From the NCBI GenBank assembly GCA_041736305.1, contig JBGSTX010000171.1, positions 1 through 35,530 on the forward strand: a stretch of 35,530 nt of DNA, written 5' to 3'. The stretch comes from Oligoflexus sp. GTDB lineage: Bacteria; Bdellovibrionota_B; Oligoflexia; Oligoflexales; Oligoflexaceae. The position numbers and the translations under genes are program-made. Of this stretch, positions 2,591 through 15,266 are shown one piece after another (the first letter of the stretch is position 1; every line of letters starts with the position of its first letter). Under the pieces are notes generated by a model that did no database searches, was not told the DNA's origin, and was given only the letters and a program-made list of their open reading frames with translations.

Positions 2591-3892
2591 TCACTTGAAC
2601 TGCGGCTCATTAAGAATACCTTGGAACAGAATGCTCCCCGTCTTGGTATCGCGCAAACTAAAGAAAAATGGCTCATCGGCTATAAACTCAACATAGGGTT
2701 GGTCGTCAGGCTCGATTTCTGCCGATACTGTCTCCGCTATAATAACAGCCGTCACGGCCGCAGCCTTGAAGCCGTTCTCATCCATCTCAACCGCAGTTTT
2801 CTGCAGAACATCGGTGAAAAAAATAGGGGTACTAGCAAAGGTACGGCCTAGCTTATCCAGCTGGGCAGTCTTAGAAAAAACTCGCTTCATCCCTAAAGCC
2901 TGGAGCTGCTGCCTCATTGACTGGGTAAAGTCTAATTTGAATTTTGGTATTTTTACTAAGTTGACTTTGGTCGAACGCTGCGATTTCTGCAACTGATCGT
3001 AGTTATCACGGCTGAAAGAATTGAGGCTAGCCGTCTTTTTACTTGGGAGAACGAAATCTAATTGATAGCGGCCGTAATTAGTAAGGGAACGGAACCTGAG
3101 ACTCATCATCTTAAAGGTCCCGTCGTCGACATAAGGCGTACGCAGATCGGTGTGACGAAGAGTGTCGGCTTGAATCATGCGCCCGTCACCCAGGTAGAAA
3201 GGCTCAGCAGACGTTTCATCCCGTGAAAACTGCGCATCCCATTGCCCTTGGAAGAAAAGCGCGTTGAGCAGGACGGCAACTGTATCGTCTTCGAATTTTT
3301 CAAGTATGGTGGGGATCATGCCGCCGGTGCTTTCCTCAACCCAATTATTCATGGCTTGGAGGGTCTTCGGATCGCTAAACGGCTCGTCGCGCGCCAAGTC
3401 TTGGTCAGGCAGGATGCTATAGAAAGTATTGGCCTGCATTCGAAATTGTGGGCTCAGCTCAAACCGCTCACTGTCGACCCAAATCGAATTGGCGATATGC
3501 AGCGTCTCATCGTTTTCTGCCCCTGAGGAGCGCAGGGATTTGGTCAGGGCCTGAGCGCGTAGGTTCCAGTCATTTATGGGGTCCTTGCCGAGACCTAGAA
3601 CGGACTTCATTTCAGTGAGGGTTTCGGCATTCGCGCCATTGCTCGACATGGTTAACACCAGCCAGGCACTGAGCGGCGAAAAGAGCAGGTTTTCAGGAAC
3701 AGTCTTTTTTTCGCTCTCAGCCCGTATCCTATTGAATACCGTCCAACCAAATTGATTAGAGGCATTGGCGGCCAATTGTTCTGGATTCAAACGTGCTTGG
3801 ATTGAGACGGGACTGGCACCCTCTGCTAGGGCAGTGAGGGGAATAGACAAAGCCAGGGCGAGCAGGGACAGAATGTTGGTTTTCTTAAGCAC
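2591..3892 (-). CDS. Secreted serpin (serine protease inhibitor)
   Basis: Signal peptide; NLLFSPLS, ANSIW, MNNWVEESTGGMIP, LLNALFFQGQW, PKFKLD; hinge/RCL EMDENGFKAAAVT; C-terminal FIADEPFFF...ILFQG. GTG start with AAGGA RBS. Confidence 0.95.
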   Translation of the reverse strand: MLKKTNILSLLALALSIPLTALAEGASPVSIQARLNPEQLAANASNQFGWTVFNRIRAESEKKTVPENLLFSPLSAWLVLTMSSNGANAETLTEMKSVLGLGKDPINDWNLRAQALTKSLRSSGAENDETLHIANSIWVDSERFELSPQFRMQANTFYSILPDQDLARDEPFSDPKTLQAMNNWVEESTGGMIPTILEKFEDDTVAVLLNALFFQGQWDAQFSRDETSAEPFYLGDGRMIQADTLRHTDLRTPYVDDGTFKMMSLRFRSLTNYGRYQLDFVLPSKKTASLNSFSRDNYDQLQKSQRSTKVNLVKIPKFKLDFTQSMRQQLQALGMKRVFSKTAQLDKLGRTFASTPIFFTDVLQKTAVEMDENGFKAAAVTAVIIAETVSAEIEPDDQPYVEFIADEPFFFSLRDTKTGSILFQGILNEPQFK

Positions 3893-6600: not shown

Positions 6601-6786
6601 AGGCCATCCCGAGAGCCGGACGCTAACGGCATCGATTGACCTGCTACATACTGAATCCGTGGCTGAGTCCTTCACATGGCAGATGATCAAAGTGCTCAGC
6701 CGACGTCAAGTTCGTACTGGCTAAAGAGGGCGTGGCTCCTTAGTTTGAGTCCCAGTGAACGTACATACAATTCCTTGCCTTCTTAA

Positions 6787-6815
6787 CTTAATATCAGCTT
6801 TAGCCTCGCTTTACA
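6787..6815 (+). promoter_or_regulatory. Pho-box-like direct repeats upstream of phoD
   Basis: CTTAATA (6787), CTTTAGC (6798) and CTTTACA (6809) have exact 11-bp periodicity. Confidence 0.45.
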
Positions 6816-6862
6816 TGTTGCTCCTAAGCTCCGGCGAAAGCTCCCGCGAAAGGAGGGCATTT

Positions 6863-8449
6863 ATGAAAACAAAAAGAGACGGTGTCGATCGTCGAGAGTT
6901 GCTTAAGAGTACCTGGCTTCTAGGCAGTGGATTCATAGGGGGATCCACCATCTTGGGCCAGCTTGCACAGTCAAGCCCCATGCGCATTGGGAGACCCCAA
7001 GGCCGACCCTTCTTGCCCTGGGGTGTGCAGCTCGGCGATATCACATCGAGTGGTTTGACTCTCTGGAGCGCCACCGATCGACCCGCACAGATGCTGGTCG
7101 AGGTCGCGGACAATAGTGCCTTTCAAAGTGCCATGCGTTTCACCGGGGGAATCGCTTTGGCTACGCAGGATTTCACAGCAAGGGTGAACCTCCAGGGCCT
7201 GCCGGATGCTGAGCTTCTGCATTATCGAGTCAGCTTCCGCGACCTTGATAAGGCCGGCCTGAGCAGCGAGCCTTTTGTCGGAACGATACGGCCTCTAGCG
7301 CAGAATCCGCGGCGTCTTCGTTTCTGCTTTTCCGGGGATACTGCCGGTCAAGGCTGGGGCATCAACTCGGAGTTTGGCGGGATGAAAATCTACAGCGCCA
7401 TCCTCAAACGGCAGCCGGATTTCTTTGTCCATTGTGGGGATTGCATCTATGCCGATGGACCCATATCCTCGGAAGTCATTTTAGACGACGGAAGCCTCTG
7501 GAAAAACCTGGTAACGGAAGCCAAATCCAAGGTCGCAGAGACTCTGCAGGAATACCGCGGGAACTATCAGTACAATTTGCTGGATGATAATGTCAGGAAG
7601 TTCAATGCCAGCATCCCACAGCTCGTCCAGTGGGATGATCACGAAACACTCAATAACTGGTATCCTCAGGAGATCCTCGACGATAAGCGCTACACGGAAA
7701 AAAGTCTGGCTGTGCTGTCCAGTCGAGCCCGTCAGGCCTTTCTGGAATACACGCCGATCAATCCAGTCTGGAGCGAGCAGAAACAGATTTATCGGGCGTT
7801 TTCCTACGGCGGCCTTCTCGACATTTTCATGCTGGATCTTCGCAGTTATCGAGGCCCGAATAGCCCCAATCGTCAGGATGCGCGCTCACCGGAAACAGAC
7901 TTTATGGGTTTAACCCAAGTGGAATGGCTCAAACGTTCGCTCTCTGCGTCCAAAGCGATCTGGAAAGTCATCAGCAGTGACATGCCGCTTGGTCTGCTTG
8001 TGGCCGATGGGCCGTCTGATTTTGAAGCCTGGGCGAATGGAGATGGCCCGGCACTCGGACGCGAATTGGAACTCGCCGACCTTCTGCAGTTCATTATGGA
8101 GCAGAACATTTCCAATGTTGTCTGGATAACGGCCGACGTCCATTATGCGGCCGCGCATTACTACAACCCAGCAAAGGCGCAAGTCAAAAACTTCAAACCT
8201 TTCTGGGAATTTGTTTCGGGCCCAATGCATGCCGGGACTTTTGGTCCCAACGCACTTGACAATACGTTTGGCCCGGAGGTGAAGTGGAAGGGAATCCCGG
8301 ATGATTTGAAAGCCAATCGCTCCCCGGCGGATGGCTATCAATTTTTTGGAGAAATCGAAGTGGACACGGAGACTCGAAGGATGACTGTGAGGCAGTTTAA
8401 CATCCGCAGCGAACAAGTTTTCTCGATCGATCTCGAAGCGGAAAAGTAA
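6863..8449 (+). CDS. phoD: Alkaline phosphatase D, Tat-exported
   Basis: Twin-arginine RRELLK; SGDTAGQGWG, HCGDCIYADG, QWDDHE, LDLRSYR, TADVHY. AGGAGG RBS precedes ATG 6863. Confidence 0.95.
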   Translation: MKTKRDGVDRRELLKSTWLLGSGFIGGSTILGQLAQSSPMRIGRPQGRPFLPWGVQLGDITSSGLTLWSATDRPAQMLVEVADNSAFQSAMRFTGGIALATQDFTARVNLQGLPDAELLHYRVSFRDLDKAGLSSEPFVGTIRPLAQNPRRLRFCFSGDTAGQGWGINSEFGGMKIYSAILKRQPDFFVHCGDCIYADGPISSEVILDDGSLWKNLVTEAKSKVAETLQEYRGNYQYNLLDDNVRKFNASIPQLVQWDDHETLNNWYPQEILDDKRYTEKSLAVLSSRARQAFLEYTPINPVWSEQKQIYRAFSYGGLLDIFMLDLRSYRGPNSPNRQDARSPETDFMGLTQVEWLKRSLSASKAIWKVISSDMPLGLLVADGPSDFEAWANGDGPALGRELELADLLQFIMEQNISNVVWITADVHYAAAHYYNPAKAQVKNFKPFWEFVSGPMHAGTFGPNALDNTFGPEVKWKGIPDDLKANRSPADGYQFFGEIEVDTETRRMTVRQFNIRSEQVFSIDLEAEK

Positions 8450-8457
8450 GATCAGAT

Positions 8458-8476
8458 CAACTAACTGCGTTAGTTG
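8458..8476 (+). terminator. Hairpin after phoD
   Basis: CAACTAAC-tgc-GTTAGTTG, 8 nt after the stop. No clear U tract. Confidence 0.35.
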
Positions 8477-8765
8477 GCCGTGGCAATTTTAGCAATCGCG
8501 ATCACAGGACACTACTGGAAAAGATGAATGCAATGATCGCGTCGACTTTGGGCCAAGGAAAGCAGGGCTTTCTCCTTGTCGCGGATGCCTAATATTCTTC
8601 TGCTGCCGTTCTCGACTCCATGGCGGCTCAAAACGGATCCATGCTCGTGCGTGTGAGGAACAATGCAGTCATTCGACTTTATCACGCGCAGTTCGGAATC
8701 TTGAGCACAGATTATTCAAGCTCGCTAATCCTCGTCTCCTGAGAAAAAGATGCCCTTCTATGCCT

Positions 8766-8862
8766 CTGTCGAACGGTAAAATCGAGGCCTGGCATAAGTC
8801 TCTGAAGAAGGAATGCGTGCGCCTCTCGGCCCCGCGATCATACAAGGAGGGTCAAGAGGCTG
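8766..8862 (+). pseudogene. IS3/IS481-type integrase-core transposase fragment
   Basis: Translates LSNGKIEAWHKSLKKECVRLSAPRSYKEG, the helix carrying the catalytic E of the DDE triad. Confidence 0.8.
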
Positions 8863-8997
8863 CTTCAATGCTTTGGTGAATAATAATGATGATCCAAATT
8901 ATTGAGCGGGATCTCCAGTCACTGGATGGCAAGATAGACGACTCCTTCAGCTGTCAAAGCCAAAGGATTCGCGTTCCTTCAAAGGATTCTCAGGATC

Positions 8998-11286
8998 TTA
9001 GTGACTTTTAAGGTCGAAACGCCCGAGGGACATGACCTTGCCCCAAGCATCAGCAAAGTCAGCGACAAATTTACGTTTTGCATTCTGATCGGCATAGGTA
9101 AAAGCCAACATGCGCAGTTCGCCGCTGGTTCCGAACATCAGATCCTGGCTGGTAACTTTCCATTTTTGCTTGCCAGTCTTGCGATCAACGCCATCGAAGA
9201 TTCCTTTTTGCTCGCTCGATTCTACCCACTTTGTGTTGTTATCAAGCAGATTGATAAAGTAGTCATTGCTTAATGTGCCACGGTTTTGAGTAAGCTCGCC
9301 AAACGGGACGTTGTTGTGATTAGCTCCTAAAACCCGAAGACCACCCGTGAGGGCAACCATCTCTTTACGCGTTAGGTTGAGCATATCAGCGCGCTCAACA
9401 AAGGCTTTCTCTGCCGTCAGATAGCTTTCACTCGCGTTATGATAGTTTCTAAACCCGTCCGAGGTAACTTTAATGACGTTAAAGGATGCAATATCCGTTT
9501 GCTCCTGGCTGGCATCGCTGCGGCCGGGAGTAAAAGGAATATTGATCTCATATCCAGCCGCCTTCGCTGCCTGCTCAACAGCTGTGTTACCAGCTAAGAC
9601 GATGAGATCGGCAAGGGAGACCTGTCGTGTTTTACGAGCTGCGTTAAATTGGGATTTAATCGTCTCGAGTTGCTTCAGGCTTTTTTCAAGCAGTTGAGGT
9701 TCGTTAACTTCCCAGGATTTCTGGGGCATAAGCGCAACGCGAGCTCCATTCGATCCACCGCGCATGTCGGTCTTGCGAAAAGTTGCAGAAGAGGCCCAGG
9801 CTGTTTTAACCCAATCAGAAATGGATAGATCACATTTTTTGATCATATCCTTCAGTGCCCTGATGTCAGCGGCATTGATCATTTCATAGTTAGCAGCGGG
9901 AACTGGATCCTGGAAGCTATAGTCTTCCTTCGAAAAATCATTGCCCAGGTAACGCGATTTTGGCCCTAAATCCCGATGAATCAGTTTAAACCAGGCTTTG
10001 GCAAAAGCATCACCAAACTCCTGAGGATTGTTCAAATAGCGGGTAGTGATCTCCTTGTACTTTGCATCAGTCTTGAGCGCAATATCGGCCGTTGTCATCG
10101 TGATCGTTACTTTTTCCGAGGGATTGTGAGCATCAGGCGCGAGATCTGCCTCGTCAATGTTTTCTGGGAACCACTGAAACTTGCCGCCAGGACCTTTAGC
10201 AACTTTCCAATTATACTTGTAGAGGTTGCTTAGATATTCATGAGTCCATTGAACGGGCTTTGATGTCCACGATCCTTCGATACCACTTGTGTTTGCATTT
10301 GCACCCTTTGCCTGTAGGCAATTGCCTTTAGAATCTTTACACTCTTCTGGCGCTGGTTTTCCGTGCATCTTGCCGAAAGTGTGTCCGCCGGCAATCAATG
10401 CCACGGTCTCTTCGTCATTCATGCCCATGCGGCCAAAGGTAATTCGTATCCGTTCAGCCGAAAGTGCTGGATCTGGTTTGCCATCAGGACCTTCTGGATT
10501 TACGTAGATAAGCCCCATCACAGAAGCAGCGAGCGGAAGCTGCAAATTGCCTTTTTCGTCAAAGCGCTCACTTTTCAGAAACTCGTCTTCAGGTCCCCAA
10601 TAAACCATATCAGGAGCCGTATCATCCACTCGTCCCCCTGCGAACCCAAGAGTCTTAAACCCCATATCCCTCATGGCTATATCACCAGCCAGGACCATAG
10701 CATCCGCCCACGAAAGATTCGGATAATACTTGTCGACGACAGGCTGGATCAGCAGACGAGCCTTATCTAAGTTGGCATTGTCTGGCCACTGCGCGAGGGG
10801 ATAAAAACGCATCTGACCGCCGTCCGCCCCTCCCCGACCATCGATAGCACGGAATGTACCTGCGCTATGCCAAGAAAGGCGAATAAAGAGAGGCCCATAG
10901 TGGCCATAATCTGCCGGCCAAAATTCTTTTGAATCCCTCAGGACGGCCGTCATGTCCGCCTTAACCTGCTCGAAGTCGAGTTTGGCAAAAGCTTTGCGAT
11001 AATCGAAGGCAGAGCCGAGTGGATTGTCGGGACTTTCATTCTTAAGCAATGGAGCAAGATCAACCACAGGTGTGGCTGATGGCCCTTCAATGATCAATCG
11101 AGGAATCGTTTGATCAATAGAGGAGCTTAAATCGCGAACGGCGGCAGGTATCGCAGGGCTTGTGGCGGGAGGTGCTTTTGATCTGGCATTATGAGCCTCT
11201 TCTTTCCCATAGCCTGGGAAAGAATAGCCAGGTGCCATCATGAAGATAGACGAGCTTAAAATAAAGCGATTGGTAATTTTCTTCAT
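8998..11286 (-). CDS. katG: Catalase-peroxidase with an N-terminal signal-like extension
   Basis: RLSWHSAGT, MGLIYVNPEG, GRMGMNDEETVALIAGGHTFGK, WFKLIHRD, plus the duplicated C-terminal domain. AAGGA RBS precedes ATG 11286. Confidence 0.97.
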   Translation of the reverse strand: MKKITNRFILSSSIFMMAPGYSFPGYGKEEAHNARSKAPPATSPAIPAAVRDLSSSIDQTIPRLIIEGPSATPVVDLAPLLKNESPDNPLGSAFDYRKAFAKLDFEQVKADMTAVLRDSKEFWPADYGHYGPLFIRLSWHSAGTFRAIDGRGGADGGQMRFYPLAQWPDNANLDKARLLIQPVVDKYYPNLSWADAMVLAGDIAMRDMGFKTLGFAGGRVDDTAPDMVYWGPEDEFLKSERFDEKGNLQLPLAASVMGLIYVNPEGPDGKPDPALSAERIRITFGRMGMNDEETVALIAGGHTFGKMHGKPAPEECKDSKGNCLQAKGANANTSGIEGSWTSKPVQWTHEYLSNLYKYNWKVAKGPGGKFQWFPENIDEADLAPDAHNPSEKVTITMTTADIALKTDAKYKEITTRYLNNPQEFGDAFAKAWFKLIHRDLGPKSRYLGNDFSKEDYSFQDPVPAANYEMINAADIRALKDMIKKCDLSISDWVKTAWASSATFRKTDMRGGSNGARVALMPQKSWEVNEPQLLEKSLKQLETIKSQFNAARKTRQVSLADLIVLAGNTAVEQAAKAAGYEINIPFTPGRSDASQEQTDIASFNVIKVTSDGFRNYHNASESYLTAEKAFVERADMLNLTRKEMVALTGGLRVLGANHNNVPFGELTQNRGTLSNDYFINLLDNNTKWVESSEQKGIFDGVDRKTGKQKWKVTSQDLMFGTSGELRMLAFTYADQNAKRKFVADFADAWGKVMSLGRFDLKSH

Positions 11287-11724
11287 ATACGCGCTTCCTT
11301 TCAATCGAGGTGGACTGGATTATTCGTGATGGATTCGGAAGGGAGCTGCCCTTAGTTACAAAGTACCTGCGTGATCTAAGTTTTATTATTATCCGATGCG
11401 TCATAAGTGATTTCTGGCTGATGGGTAATATCAAGTGTGCGAAGCCCGAGAGCTTTCACAGAAAAGCTGGCGCGCGATAGCTGGTTTTGTTGCGTTTGCA
11501 AACGCTGAGCAAGAAATTAGCTGGATTCGCGAGGTATCATGCAGCCATTGAATGGAAGATTTCAGCCGAGTTTATACCCTCGGCTCGGCTCTTAAAGGTG
11601 ACCGCAGTGTGGATAACCTAGAGACGCGGAATTCGGACAGAAAAAGTGGTACTCTTTAGTTTATAAAGAAAGAACCACCAAAACAGGCAGAACGGCCTTG
11701 CCCACATTTCATTTGAGGACCAAT

Positions 11725-12813
11725 ATGTTTTCTCTCAGATTCTGTGCAAGCACAACGTTTATAGCTGCGATTCTCCCAAGTGCTTGCCAATCTACCGGTA
11801 GCGGAAAATCAAGCATTAAAGATGATGTAGAGCTTAGTGCACCGGACTGCCCTGCGGGGACTGATTATGTTCCCTTGTCCTTAGCGGAGCCGCCTGATCC
11901 CAATGTCGAGTTCACCCCTAAAGAAACTATAAAAGACGGCACTCCACATCTATGGCCTACCGGATATGAGACGGCTTTACAGCTCCGGGTTGATGCCTGC
12001 ATAGATAACAACGATAATTTCAAGGTCTTACGCATCATCAGCAGACAATACATCAGCGGCGTGGGCGTGTCTATATATAGAGAATACAAGGCAGACTCAG
12101 GTATAAAGGCAGAAGGCATCATAGAAGCCCTCAATGGCGATGTTTCAAAACTCCTCATTTTTGTCCCGAAATCAGAACCAGGAGAATCAAGCTTCAAGAT
12201 CACTGGGACGGTGGTAGGCGGAGATCAGCTGACGTACATCTTCGAATCTTCGGAATCTGATCCAGAAAAGGCGGAAGGCCGCATTTTCACATTTGGCACT
12301 TTAATTTCTGCCAACCCCTGGGCTGGTAAAGGTGAAGGGCCTTGTTCGGGAGACAAAACACTCCAACAGTACAGGCACCTCGTTAAAACATCAAACGGGG
12401 AGATTGACTTTACCGTCGTCGGCTGTGAGTTCTATAGTTATGGGACTAGACGCCTCGAGTGGCGCAAGGCCTGGTTGAAGGACAGCGGAGCGCCAGCTGG
12501 ATTCGCCAATAAAGTTTTCACCTTCTCCCCGGATGCGAACTCTAAAGAGAGCCGCTTCGACTATAGTTTCACTCATCATAACGCTTGCGAGTGGCACTCC
12601 TTCATACTCCCGCATGCAAGCTATGGGATGACCGCTGCTATTCGTCCAGGCAATATAGGGGGCAATTCAACGGAATGCGAGCAGAAGAAGTTCGCCCCAA
12701 GGACCAAAATAGAAGAAAACAAAGGCTTCGCCTTTGCCTATGGTGGCCAGCCGACCTTTATTAAAAATGTCGATATTAAAATAGAAAAAAAGGCATTAAA
12801 GGCCATACCCTAA
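11725..12813 (+). CDS. Hypothetical lipoprotein, Cys-containing and beta-rich
   Basis: GAGG RBS then ATG 11725. Hydrophobic stretch ends in a lipobox-like PSAC; several further Cys; THHNAC motif. Confidence 0.7.
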   Translation: MFSLRFCASTTFIAAILPSACQSTGSGKSSIKDDVELSAPDCPAGTDYVPLSLAEPPDPNVEFTPKETIKDGTPHLWPTGYETALQLRVDACIDNNDNFKVLRIISRQYISGVGVSIYREYKADSGIKAEGIIEALNGDVSKLLIFVPKSEPGESSFKITGTVVGGDQLTYIFESSESDPEKAEGRIFTFGTLISANPWAGKGEGPCSGDKTLQQYRHLVKTSNGEIDFTVVGCEFYSYGTRRLEWRKAWLKDSGAPAGFANKVFTFSPDANSKESRFDYSFTHHNACEWHSFILPHASYGMTAAIRPGNIGGNSTECEQKKFAPRTKIEENKGFAFAYGGQPTFIKNVDIKIEKKALKAIP

Positions 12814-12932
12814 ACGCTTCACAGCCTTGAGCTAAGCTTTTCTCACTTCTGGGTCCTTGTTTTGCGCCCTTTTTTTCTTAGATCGATAGAGGCTTTGTAT
12901 CGTTTGCAAGACTAATTATCAGAGGAATCACT

Positions 12933-15266
12933 ATGATCAGCACACACGCGTGGCTCCCCCTTTGTTTAATAGTTGGATCCACCTTTATAGCATGCAAGAA
13001 ACCTACAAATAGCGCTAGCAAAGCTTTAGCAGCTGGCCCCTACACCCACACTCTGAGCGATCTCAATGAATACTATGCATACGCTGGTCGCTCCGGCAGC
13101 TCAACCGTTGTCAAGTTTACAGTCGACATCAAGGCCGAAGGCGCGCCGATCTATTTTCAGAACACGACCCGCTACCCTTTCCACGCCGACTTTTTGACTG
13201 AAAATCTGGCCAAATACAAAAATATGTCCTTCGAGGAATACGTGAAATTTGTCTTCGGTGGTCCTGATGCCGAAGGCAAGGAGCTCTCTGCAGGCGCCGT
13301 CATGTATTCGGAATCCTACCAACTGACTCCGGACCAGGTGAATGGGACCGTAGCCTTTGAGTATTATCTAGGGGAGGAGGGCAAGGCTGCTTCGGCTGAG
13401 GACTACCAGAAGCAATTTCCATTTATAGAACAGGCTTACAAAAATATTGTCGTGGCCATGCCTTTTGCCAAAGATCGCATCGCCATCTTCTTACCTAGTA
13501 AGATTCGCTTCAGCGCGGCGTCTACTATCAAGCTGTTCAAAGATGCGAAAATACCCATCCTTTGGGACTCAGAAAAGTTGCGTAAAGATTTTTTCAAGAC
13601 TGGCGACGTGGAAGTCTACCATCCAGCTAGCTCTTATGGTTACCTTCGCATAATATCGGCTGAAGATCTTGCGGCAGGTAATTACTCATCGAAGGAAATT
13701 CTGGTGATGAGCGATATTCCCCTGGATATCGGTCCAGTTTCCGGCATCATCACCTCTATTCCCCAGACTCCCCTTGCCCATATCATGCTGCGTGCGGTGA
13801 ATCAGAATATTCCCGATATTTTTCTGCTTGGAGCCCTTGAAAATGCTGACATCGCGCGCAACGTCGGCAAGCTGGTGCAGTTCGTCGCTAACGCTGACAA
13901 GACTTATACTATTAAGGGTGAAGCCGAGCTTGGTGCCGAGCTTAAGCAGCAGGCCGAAGCTTACTTCAAAGGTAGAGTGCCCCAGCTTCCGCCTTTGGCT
14001 TCCAACCTCTCAGAAAATGGACTGATGTCCTGGGTAAGTGCTCCTGTCGCTCTTCCTCAGGTGAGCTCCTATGGAGCCAAAGGCGTGAACTTCGCCCTAC
14101 TCGACCTGGCCCTTCGCAAGAGCGGCGTTGATCGCACGGACTATGACGGCGGATTTTTGATACCTTTTTCTTTCTATGATCGGCATACTTCAAACAAGTT
14201 CACAGCTGAAATGTGTACAAAGTCCCTTAAGGATTGCAAAGAAGAAACGGGCCTAAGCTGTGATCTTCCCTTTGCAAAGTGCTCTGAACTTTCATCAAAA
14301 GGCACAAGCCTAAAGGACTTTGTCAGCTCCATGATCAACCCTGTCTCCACTCCTGAGATGAATGACTACAAGGCACGTCGTCAGTATCTGGCCTTTATTC
14401 GAGTACTATTTGAAATAGCTCCGATGAACAGCCAAGATCTTGCACTGATCAAGGCGCAGATGACCAAAGGCTACCCCGCCACGACCCGCATTCGCTTCCG
14501 TTCGAGCACCAATGCGGAAGATCTACCTGGCCTCAACGGTGCCGGTCTCTATGAGTCCAAGTCGGGTTGTGTTCAGGACGATATCAATGAGGCAATGAAC
14601 CTTGGTAAGAATGAAGCTTCGGCTTGCCGCACCCCGCTTGAACTCAAACGCATCAACCAGCGCCTACCTAAATTGGATGCTGAAAAAGACGCCGCGACAA
14701 TTGCTGATCTTAAGAAGGACCTCACTCAAAAGTATCGAGTCGATAAAAACATTAAGAAGGTTTGGGCTAGCCTTTGGACTGACCGCGCTTACGTTACACG
14801 GGACTATTACAATCTTTCCCACGACCAAGTTTATATGGGAATTCTTGTTGCTCCGGCTTTTGTGGACGAATCAGCCAATGGGGTGGTTGTGGTAGGAGAT
14901 ACCGCAGAAGGGGTTGAGATCACTGTTTCGGCACAATTCGAAGACTTCAGCATCACCAACCCTATCATCCGGGGAGCATCACCTGAGTATTTCATGGTCG
15001 TGCGCAAGGCGGACGGCAGCTTGAGCCCGACGGTTTATTATCGCCGGAGCAATCTGGTCTCGGGCAAAGTTCTGAACGATGAGCAAGTGAAGAGCCTCGC
15101 TTTCCAGGTCTCTATTGTACATAATAATCAAAAGGCCAACTTGGGTGATCGCTTTACTGGTAAGACCGACCTAGAATTTATTGTCGATGCGAAAGGGCAA
15201 GTGTTGATCAAACAGGCCCGTTCACTGCCTAAGTCAATCGATGGAACTTTCAGCCGTGATCAATAA
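12933..15266 (+). CDS. Lipoprotein with phospho-His swivel and PEP synthase/PPDK-type ATP-grasp domains
   Basis: Lipobox FIAC-KK; GIITSIPQTPLAHIMLRA (phospho-His-like); YGAKGVNFA, RFRSSTNAEDLPGLNGAGLYES, KKVWASLW, DLEF...IKQAR (ATP-grasp). No pyruvate-binding barrel. Confidence 0.85.
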   Translation: MISTHAWLPLCLIVGSTFIACKKPTNSASKALAAGPYTHTLSDLNEYYAYAGRSGSSTVVKFTVDIKAEGAPIYFQNTTRYPFHADFLTENLAKYKNMSFEEYVKFVFGGPDAEGKELSAGAVMYSESYQLTPDQVNGTVAFEYYLGEEGKAASAEDYQKQFPFIEQAYKNIVVAMPFAKDRIAIFLPSKIRFSAASTIKLFKDAKIPILWDSEKLRKDFFKTGDVEVYHPASSYGYLRIISAEDLAAGNYSSKEILVMSDIPLDIGPVSGIITSIPQTPLAHIMLRAVNQNIPDIFLLGALENADIARNVGKLVQFVANADKTYTIKGEAELGAELKQQAEAYFKGRVPQLPPLASNLSENGLMSWVSAPVALPQVSSYGAKGVNFALLDLALRKSGVDRTDYDGGFLIPFSFYDRHTSNKFTAEMCTKSLKDCKEETGLSCDLPFAKCSELSSKGTSLKDFVSSMINPVSTPEMNDYKARRQYLAFIRVLFEIAPMNSQDLALIKAQMTKGYPATTRIRFRSSTNAEDLPGLNGAGLYESKSGCVQDDINEAMNLGKNEASACRTPLELKRINQRLPKLDAEKDAATIADLKKDLTQKYRVDKNIKKVWASLWTDRAYVTRDYYNLSHDQVYMGILVAPAFVDESANGVVVVGDTAEGVEITVSAQFEDFSITNPIIRGASPEYFMVVRKADGSLSPTVYYRRSNLVSGKVLNDEQVKSLAFQVSIVHNNQKANLGDRFTGKTDLEFIVDAKGQVLIKQARSLPKSIDGTFSRDQ

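Follow-up and report, generated by a model that had tools for sequence, protein, structure and literature searches.

Phosphotransferases of the phosphoenolpyruvate (PEP)-utilising swivel superfamily are marked by a PPDK_N-type ATP-grasp and a swivel domain with a conserved histidine, and all characterised swivel dikinases that we know of act in the cytoplasm or the plastid. In the plant glucan water dikinase (GWD), the domains follow the order acceptor, phospho-His, ATP-grasp. Here, we analyse a gene that carries both superfamily marks but encodes a predicted exported lipoprotein, located in a 35,530-nt stretch of Oligoflexus sp. DNA (assembly GCA_041736305.1, contig JBGSTX010000171.1, positions 1 to 35,530 of the forward strand), hereafter the window. 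According to the available part of the respective reports, rifampin phosphotransferase is ordered ATP-grasp, rifampin-binding domain, His (PMC4844700), and GWD is recognised by a CBM45 coupled to PF01326 (PMC6260743). A preliminary description drawn from the sequence alone took the gene product, hereafter the dikinase, for a membrane-anchored 'X, water dikinase' that phosphorylates a glycan, an antibiotic or a protein, perhaps with ATP from prey or lysate.

The only Pfam family detected in the dikinase is PPDK_N (PF01326; residues 464-764, E 1.2e-13, 51.5 bits against a cut-off of 27), and no other family, the PEP-utiliser mobile domain included, is matched even at E up to 1. An AlphaFold model built from 95 sequences (pLDDT 92.9, pTM 0.87) divides the chain into three domains. 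Residues 226-348 resemble the phosphohistidine domain of Enzyme I (Z 9.7, rmsd 3.7, 113 aligned) and the phosphohistidine carrier domain of PPDK (Z 7.6), so that the histidine singled out in the preliminary description, His283, lies on a swivel fold. The ATP-grasp of rifampin phosphotransferase (5hv1; Z 26.5, rmsd 2.8, 290 aligned) is the counterpart of residues 360-774, whose nucleotide site is intact, in line with the full PEP synthase/PPDK-type ATP-grasp claimed earlier. The model predicts the permuted, GWD-like order of acceptor, His and ATP-grasp that had been proposed, and it contains no pyruvate-binding barrel: the chain stops 14 residues past Arg763, and all modelled residues belong to the three other domains. 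Matches to the dikinase in the ESM Atlas are unnamed PPDK_N clusters.

To assess conservation, we used an alignment of 203 rows (156 search hits, 42 locus proteins and 5 further hits), counting, at each column, the rows that have a residue there. His283 is invariant (196/196), as are Lys383, Arg523, Glu529 and Asp530 (198/198 each) and Gln761 (192/192), and Glu748 is present in 193 of 194 rows; these figures are upper bounds because the rows were chosen by likeness to the dikinase. Arg523 and Ser542 align to Arg117 and Thr136 of rifampin phosphotransferase, given the apparent numbering offset, and Lys383 appears to be in register with Lys22, judging by the starts of the aligned ranges. In the accessible text of PMC4844700, Lys22, Arg117 and Thr136 are needed for activity.

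Rifampin phosphotransferase (5hv1, 5fbs) thus provides the closest solved ATP-grasp, and the counterparts of its Lys22, Arg117 and Thr136 are kept, but the dikinase lacks the rifampin-binding domain. Identity with rifampin phosphotransferase/PigC is ruled out by the domain order and by an NCBIfam score of 26 bits against a cut-off of 999. With PEP synthase and PPDK, the dikinase shares the PPDK_N ATP-grasp and the swivel His domain; identity with these enzymes is excluded by the missing barrel, the position of the His before the ATP-grasp and a score of 37.8 bits against a cut-off of 598. The GWD/PWD enzymes share the domain order and, presumably, the conversion of ATP to AMP and Pi, and the GWD phosphohistidine model PF22973 (GWD1_pHisD) gives weak matches, under the cut-off, in 4 of 24 relatives. 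However, the dikinase is bacterial and predicted to be exported, and it has a 195-aa alpha/beta N-terminal domain in place of CBM45. By analogy, the dikinase would work like a glucan water dikinase in layout, but it is not one.

Export is indicated by several features of the family. The dikinase begins with a hydrophobic signal ending in a lipobox Cys, the FIAC motif noted previously, and a Cys follows the hydrophobic stretch in all five full-length close homologues; Cys21 is therefore the predicted site of lipidation. The export call combines this motif with hydropathy and fused domains. By a simple hydropathy rule, an N-terminal hydrophobic stretch is present in 139 of 164 full-core relatives outside a signal-less clade described below (179 full-core rows in all). 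Surface-type domains (Fn3, cadherin, Ig, Calx-beta, lamin-tail, T9SS tail, cell-wall binding) were found in 18/35 and 20/32 hand-picked, mostly long relatives, considering the best five families per protein. Export signals and surface domains recurring across relatives indicate that export is the usual state of the family and not a quirk of this gene. Both the His and the signal peptide, whose conservation had been in question, are kept in homologues.

A search of 1.84 billion representatives yielded 2181 clusters at E up to 1e-3, a figure that will take in ordinary ATP-grasp relatives, and 398 at the stricter 1e-30; the N-domain profile matches 128 of the 150 relatives listed. Within this class, 35 of 131 genomes have a family match, in some cases more than one copy, as do 7 of 301 genomes from the phylum of a Flavobacteriaceae genome; the holders, which include Bacteroidota, Streptomyces and others, are not predators alone. 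A metagenome scan contributed one locus from 361 matches, and none of 7 pattern matches on viral contigs was confirmed. Public records name the relatives PEP synthase, wrongly, because the architecture differs. In the open literature, outside which most subscription papers lie, we found no description of the exported family, in keeping with the earlier suggestion that it is uncharacterised, and the available portions of 10.1101/2023.11.21.568195, 10.64898/2026.09.25.754361 and PMC6429109 do not describe it. What the present analysis adds is a cytoplasmic clade linked to a major facilitator superfamily (MFS) transporter, a fused partner with a His-His-Asn motif, counts of linkage to VTC genes and a Lys/His site in the N-terminal domain.

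This N-terminal domain, the unassigned region of about 200 residues in the preliminary description, is modelled with confidence as an alpha/beta domain of 195 aa that is not a beta-sandwich. Foldseek returned no match at E up to 0.001. VIA-align over 48,161 chains gave a best Z of 5.4, and a second look 5.6, both with XisH-type proteins; we read these matches to the model as reflecting a common arrangement, which does not in itself prove a new fold. The sequence profile of the domain retrieved 0 sequences from the PDB at E up to 10, and no shared Pfam family was found. The conserved positions are Lys61 (13113-13115; 158/175 rows), Asn/Asp77, His84 (13182-13184; 181/182 rows) and Gly121. The domain presumably holds the acceptor, probably in a new type of acceptor site.

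An indication of what that acceptor might be comes from a clade of 15 rows (support 1.0) in which a hydrophobic leader is found in 0/15. These proteins (72.9-75.4 kDa in 120 proteins) can be aligned with exported members across the three domains (hhalign probability 100, 617 columns) and, in a tree of 54 rows without an outgroup, are sister to two exported proteins (SH-aLRT 99.8). Members of a single MFS family adjoin the signal-less dikinase in 9 of 10 Oligoflexia loci, the tenth stopping at a contig end, and in 3/3 Streptomyces plasmid loci, or 12 of 13 loci in all. This pairing of a cytoplasmic clade with a transporter favours a small-molecule acceptor over a glycan or protein, shifting the preference among the acceptors initially proposed, whereas the domain order, swivel His, nucleotide site and export of that interpretation are supported. 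An annotated ATP-grasp ligase lies upstream of the signal-less dikinase in two of the three Streptomyces loci. The clade is frequent in Streptomyces, to which most named entries belong in the best 120 of 1063 matches. The plasmid clusters (L043 10577-15404, L044 10583-15263, L045 about 8400-13200) consist of ligase, signal-less dikinase and MFS behind a divergent PAS-type regulator, with close relatives in many named Streptomyces species, and may make a phosphorylated dipeptide; clusters of this kind predict new phosphorylated metabolites. The Oligoflexia loci (L046-L055) combine the signal-less dikinase with the same MFS without the ligase, and a HAD-like gene lies downstream in two of them (one by a weak Pfam match, one by eye).

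A comparable gene set is found in the tal (phosphoramidon) cluster, which, in the accessible text of its description, encodes an ATP-grasp ligase, a PEP-synthase homologue and an MFS; the homologue, TalE (accession MK644118), makes an N-P bond on the way to phosphoramidon/talopeptin by phosphorylating the N-terminus of the dipeptide Leu-Trp, and the tagged protein runs at about 79 kDa (PMC6482885). TalE, which presumably acts in the cytoplasm, shares two kinds of companion gene, for an ATP-grasp ligase and for an MFS, with the signal-less Streptomyces members, and the sizes are compatible. It differs in that no annotated glycosyltransferase stands beside the gene in the Streptomyces plasmid loci, the third of which is an unannotated record.

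From the computed domain folds, conserved residues and family-wide export signals, we infer that the dikinase is, very probably, an exported, active swivel enzyme. Tentatively, since the chemistry, the class of acceptor and the source of ATP are all deduced, we further favour an envelope-anchored 'X, water dikinase' that acts on a small organic acceptor with ATP from outside the cytoplasm. In such a cycle, ATP would bind to the ATP-grasp and pyrophosphorylate His283; AMP would be released and, by analogy with rifampin phosphotransferase, water would remove the gamma-phosphate as Pi, leaving the beta-phosphate on His283. The His domain would then swivel to the N-terminal domain, where the site formed by Lys61, Asn77 and His84 could hold both the acceptor and the moving phosphate, and the beta-phosphate would pass to the acceptor, for a net conversion of ATP to AMP, Pi and phospho-acceptor. 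The accepting group would most likely be an amine or a hydroxyl, either on a small soluble organic molecule or at the end of a peptide, and the ATP could come from lysed or leaking cells. If a family this widespread is exported with its catalytic residues intact, then usable ATP or another high-energy phosphate would be present in the envelope or surroundings of many bacteria, or an undescribed supply route would exist.

Several observations weigh against this interpretation. No supply of ATP to the envelope is evident within the window, and the selection of rows inflates the conservation on which catalytic activity is argued. The export count comes from the hydropathy rule and not from SignalP, and 25 of the 164 rows fail that rule, mostly truncated-looking gene calls, although P0002 fails it despite a clear lipobox. 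The neighbours of exported members, apart from the associations described here, are not conserved. The MFS of the signal-less clade occurs neither in this genome nor in any of the retrieved loci of exported members, and so the acceptor of the cytoplasmic clade need not carry over. TalE and the family were compared by gene set and size, which makes TalE a putative relative.

The alternative that best survives is an ecto-nucleotide hydrolase, in which the N-terminal domain would be a phosphohistidine phosphatase with water as the final acceptor and ATP would be converted to AMP and 2 Pi for phosphate scavenging or removal of extracellular ATP. The N-domain model shows a weak match to human PHPT1 (2nmm; Z 3.6, rmsd 4.1, 85/113 residues, model 29-157 on chain 18-121), whose starting register would put Lys61 on Lys21, with His84 at the start of a helix; in PHPT1, Lys21 and His53 are catalytic-site residues, as stated in the available part of PMC4817053. 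A PhoD phosphatase is also encoded 4.5 kb upstream. However, the PHPT1 match ranks 25th, within the noise band, the Ocnus family is matched by 0/36 members, PF05005 has no match at this locus, and the profile search of the PDB described above was empty. Moreover, an organic acceptor would also be served by the Lys/His pair, and the dedicated MFS next to members of the cytoplasmic clade does not sit well with a hydrolase. We therefore regard this alternative as unlikely.

A role linked to polyphosphate, either with exported polyphosphate as the donor or with reverse synthesis of ATP from AMP for CotH-like exported kinases, appears rather unlikely. CotH kinases use one-step gamma-phosphate chemistry on a fold unrelated to that of the swivel dikinases, but they are a precedent for exported ATP-dependent kinases and are found with VTC and DUF4956. 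The combination of CotH, a polyphosphate-polymerase domain and DUF4956 is a known gene set, described for Pel loci in the accessible parts of 10.1101/768473 and 10.1101/2024.04.20.589940. In the Oligoflexus genome, contig C124 (4535-9379, L108) carries an operon-like series of VTC, DUF4956, a phytase-like gene, an unassigned exported protein and CotH. Among the genomes of the class, a VTC gene accompanies a family match in 18, and in four of these (G031, G036, G037, G099) the two are linked within 3 kb or fused. In G099, DUF4956 is followed by a single open reading frame (ORF) joining VTC to the His/ATP-grasp unit. The link is real in some lineages but not general: 14 of the 18 genomes, this one included, are unlinked, three of the four linked genomes belong to one family, and 17 of the 35 genomes with a family match have no VTC match. 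The G099 fusion lacks the N-terminal domain, and in Bacteroidota a DUF4956-type gene adjoins the dikinase in 2 of 7 loci (one confirmed by Pfam, one by eye) in a tail-to-tail arrangement, which is not an operon. Furthermore, the nucleotide site of the dikinase is fully kept, and polyphosphate export by the module itself is only supposed. A broader scheme to which we give an equally low probability is an extracytoplasmic phosphoryl-energy circuit, in which polyphosphate exported by VTC/DUF4956 would charge His283 via the N-terminal domain, and the ATP-grasp, working backwards, would regenerate envelope ATP from AMP, or the phosphate on the His would go to partners such as the His-His-Asn lipoprotein, supplying CotH-like kinases.

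The DUF4956-VTC-dikinase fusion loci span 1506-6674 of L058 and 4188-7937 of L107. The fusion ORF (1469 aa) comprises VTC, a hydrophobic stretch, a long unassigned region, the His domain and the ATP-grasp, and an ORF 37% identical to it in a second genome is cut by a contig end.

The domain order shared with GWD would also fit a glycan kinase acting on surface or food polysaccharide, and PF22973 matches the relatives more often than the PEP-utiliser mobile domain does (4/24 versus 2/24, best E 1.9e-4 over 102/115 positions). The family may be bacterial kin of the starch dikinases. Nonetheless, the matches to both models all fall under the cut-off and none is in this dikinase, no genome of five exceeds the PF22973 cut-off, no carbohydrate-binding module is detected in the dikinase at E up to 1, and its N-terminal domain has a fold other than a beta-sandwich. 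The cytoplasmic relatives pair with a transporter and not with glycan genes, and a glycan acceptor is accordingly improbable.

The gene immediately upstream raises the possibility of a protein phosphorelay, in which the dikinase would act as an ATP-driven analogue of Enzyme I whose His283 phosphorylates a histidine in the co-oriented lipoprotein. This lipoprotein has no Pfam match and no usable match in the ESM Atlas, but its homologues flank the dikinase in L003, L006, L008 (on both sides) and L017, both P0015 (E 1.4e-19) and P0009 (E 4.5e-9) join its C-terminal His-His-Asn domain to the dikinase in one chain, and the motif is kept in 8/8 aligned copies. Exported-type dikinases are present in 10 of 13 lipoprotein-bearing genomes compared with about 25/131 overall, a comparison among kin that are not independent. 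Yet only 6 of the 37 places in the class where the lipoprotein occurs adjoin a family gene, 5 of the six being profile seeds; elsewhere it is mostly free-standing, and most exported members have no partner nearby. From these gene arrangements, the lipoprotein is likely an optional partner of the dikinase, but a relay through it seems improbable. Finally, a dikinase that is cytoplasmic or catalytically dead, serving as a nucleotide-binding or adhesion module, would fit the lack of Lys or Arg in the signal n-region and the scarcity of ATP thought to prevail outside the cytoplasm, but is made very improbable by the invariant catalytic residues and by the recurrence of signals, lipoboxes and surface domains in distant lineages.

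Table 1. Features of the dikinase locus, in coordinates of the window
Feature	Position	Strand	Basis
Upstream co-oriented lipoprotein, 362 aa, conserved His-His-Asn motif at 12574-12582; candidate partner	11725..12813	+	Homologues beside or fused to dikinase
Ribosome-binding-like AGAGGA, 6 nt 5' of ATG	12921..12926	+	Sequence
Exported three-domain dikinase gene (predicted), 777 aa	12933..15266	+	Open frame, model, fold matches
Lipoprotein signal peptide, lipobox FIAC, Cys21 at 12993-12995	12933..12995	+	Sequence and homologues
N-terminal alpha/beta domain (30-224), presumed acceptor site	13020..13604	+	Model of domain alone, pLDDT 95.9
Phosphohistidine swivel domain (226-348), His283 at 13779-13781	13608..13976	+	Structural matches and conservation
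PEP-synthase-type ATP-grasp (360-764): Lys383, Arg523, Glu529, Asp530, Ser542, Glu748, Gln761, Arg763	14010..15224	+	PF01326, structural match, conservation
Four-Cys helical insert (Cys428, 435, 443, 450), near clade only	14214..14282	+	Sequence, model, conservation
Second Cys pair (Cys546, Cys565), near clade only	14568..14627	+	Conservation

The lipoprotein family reaches 15 copies in one genome of the class (G059), which also has 6 dikinase matches. The closest match to the upstream lipoprotein, P0158 (84% identical to window 11725-12810), is filed as a hypothetical protein of Daphnia pulex and is probably a bacterial contaminant of that assembly. In the Oligoflexus genome, contig C84 (10924-11295) retains part of a further copy of the lipoprotein gene, which has stop codons close to each end and looks like a remnant.

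Nine relatives (P0010, P0011, P0021, P0027, P0033, P0043, P0045, P0046, P0049) end in another unassigned domain, about 200 aa long and marked by a conserved His/Asn/Trp motif, which does not align to the C-terminal domain of the upstream lipoprotein (hhalign probability 0.2). In the giant surface proteins P0108 and P0123, the dikinase module is joined to sulfatase or glucose/sorbosone dehydrogenase domains.

The four-Cys insert of the preliminary description is present, but it belongs to a set of six (Cys428, 435, 443, 450, 546 and 565) that is kept in 76-84 of the 203 rows, in the near clade; disulfides among these residues are plausible.

Most other window genes that were scanned have no Pfam match; those recognised encode a serpin (2591-3892), the PhoD phosphatase (6755-8449) and a catalase-peroxidase (8998-11304). 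Scans for promoters and terminators gave counts at chance level (7 against 4.0 and 6 against 5.0, respectively). A freshwater RNA run contains four short contigs 95-99% alike to the locus, two each on the dikinase and the upstream lipoprotein gene, which we do not count as expression because DNA carry-over is possible. The dikinase is single-copy in this genome (5.0 Mb, 92.7% complete), and its closest named relative, from an Oligoflexaceae genome, is 69% identical. No canonical PEP synthase or PPDK was found in the genome at this completeness; it holds two PPDK_N genes, the second being a 919-aa frame on contig C227 that, judged by eye, has the domain order of rifampin phosphotransferase/PigC.

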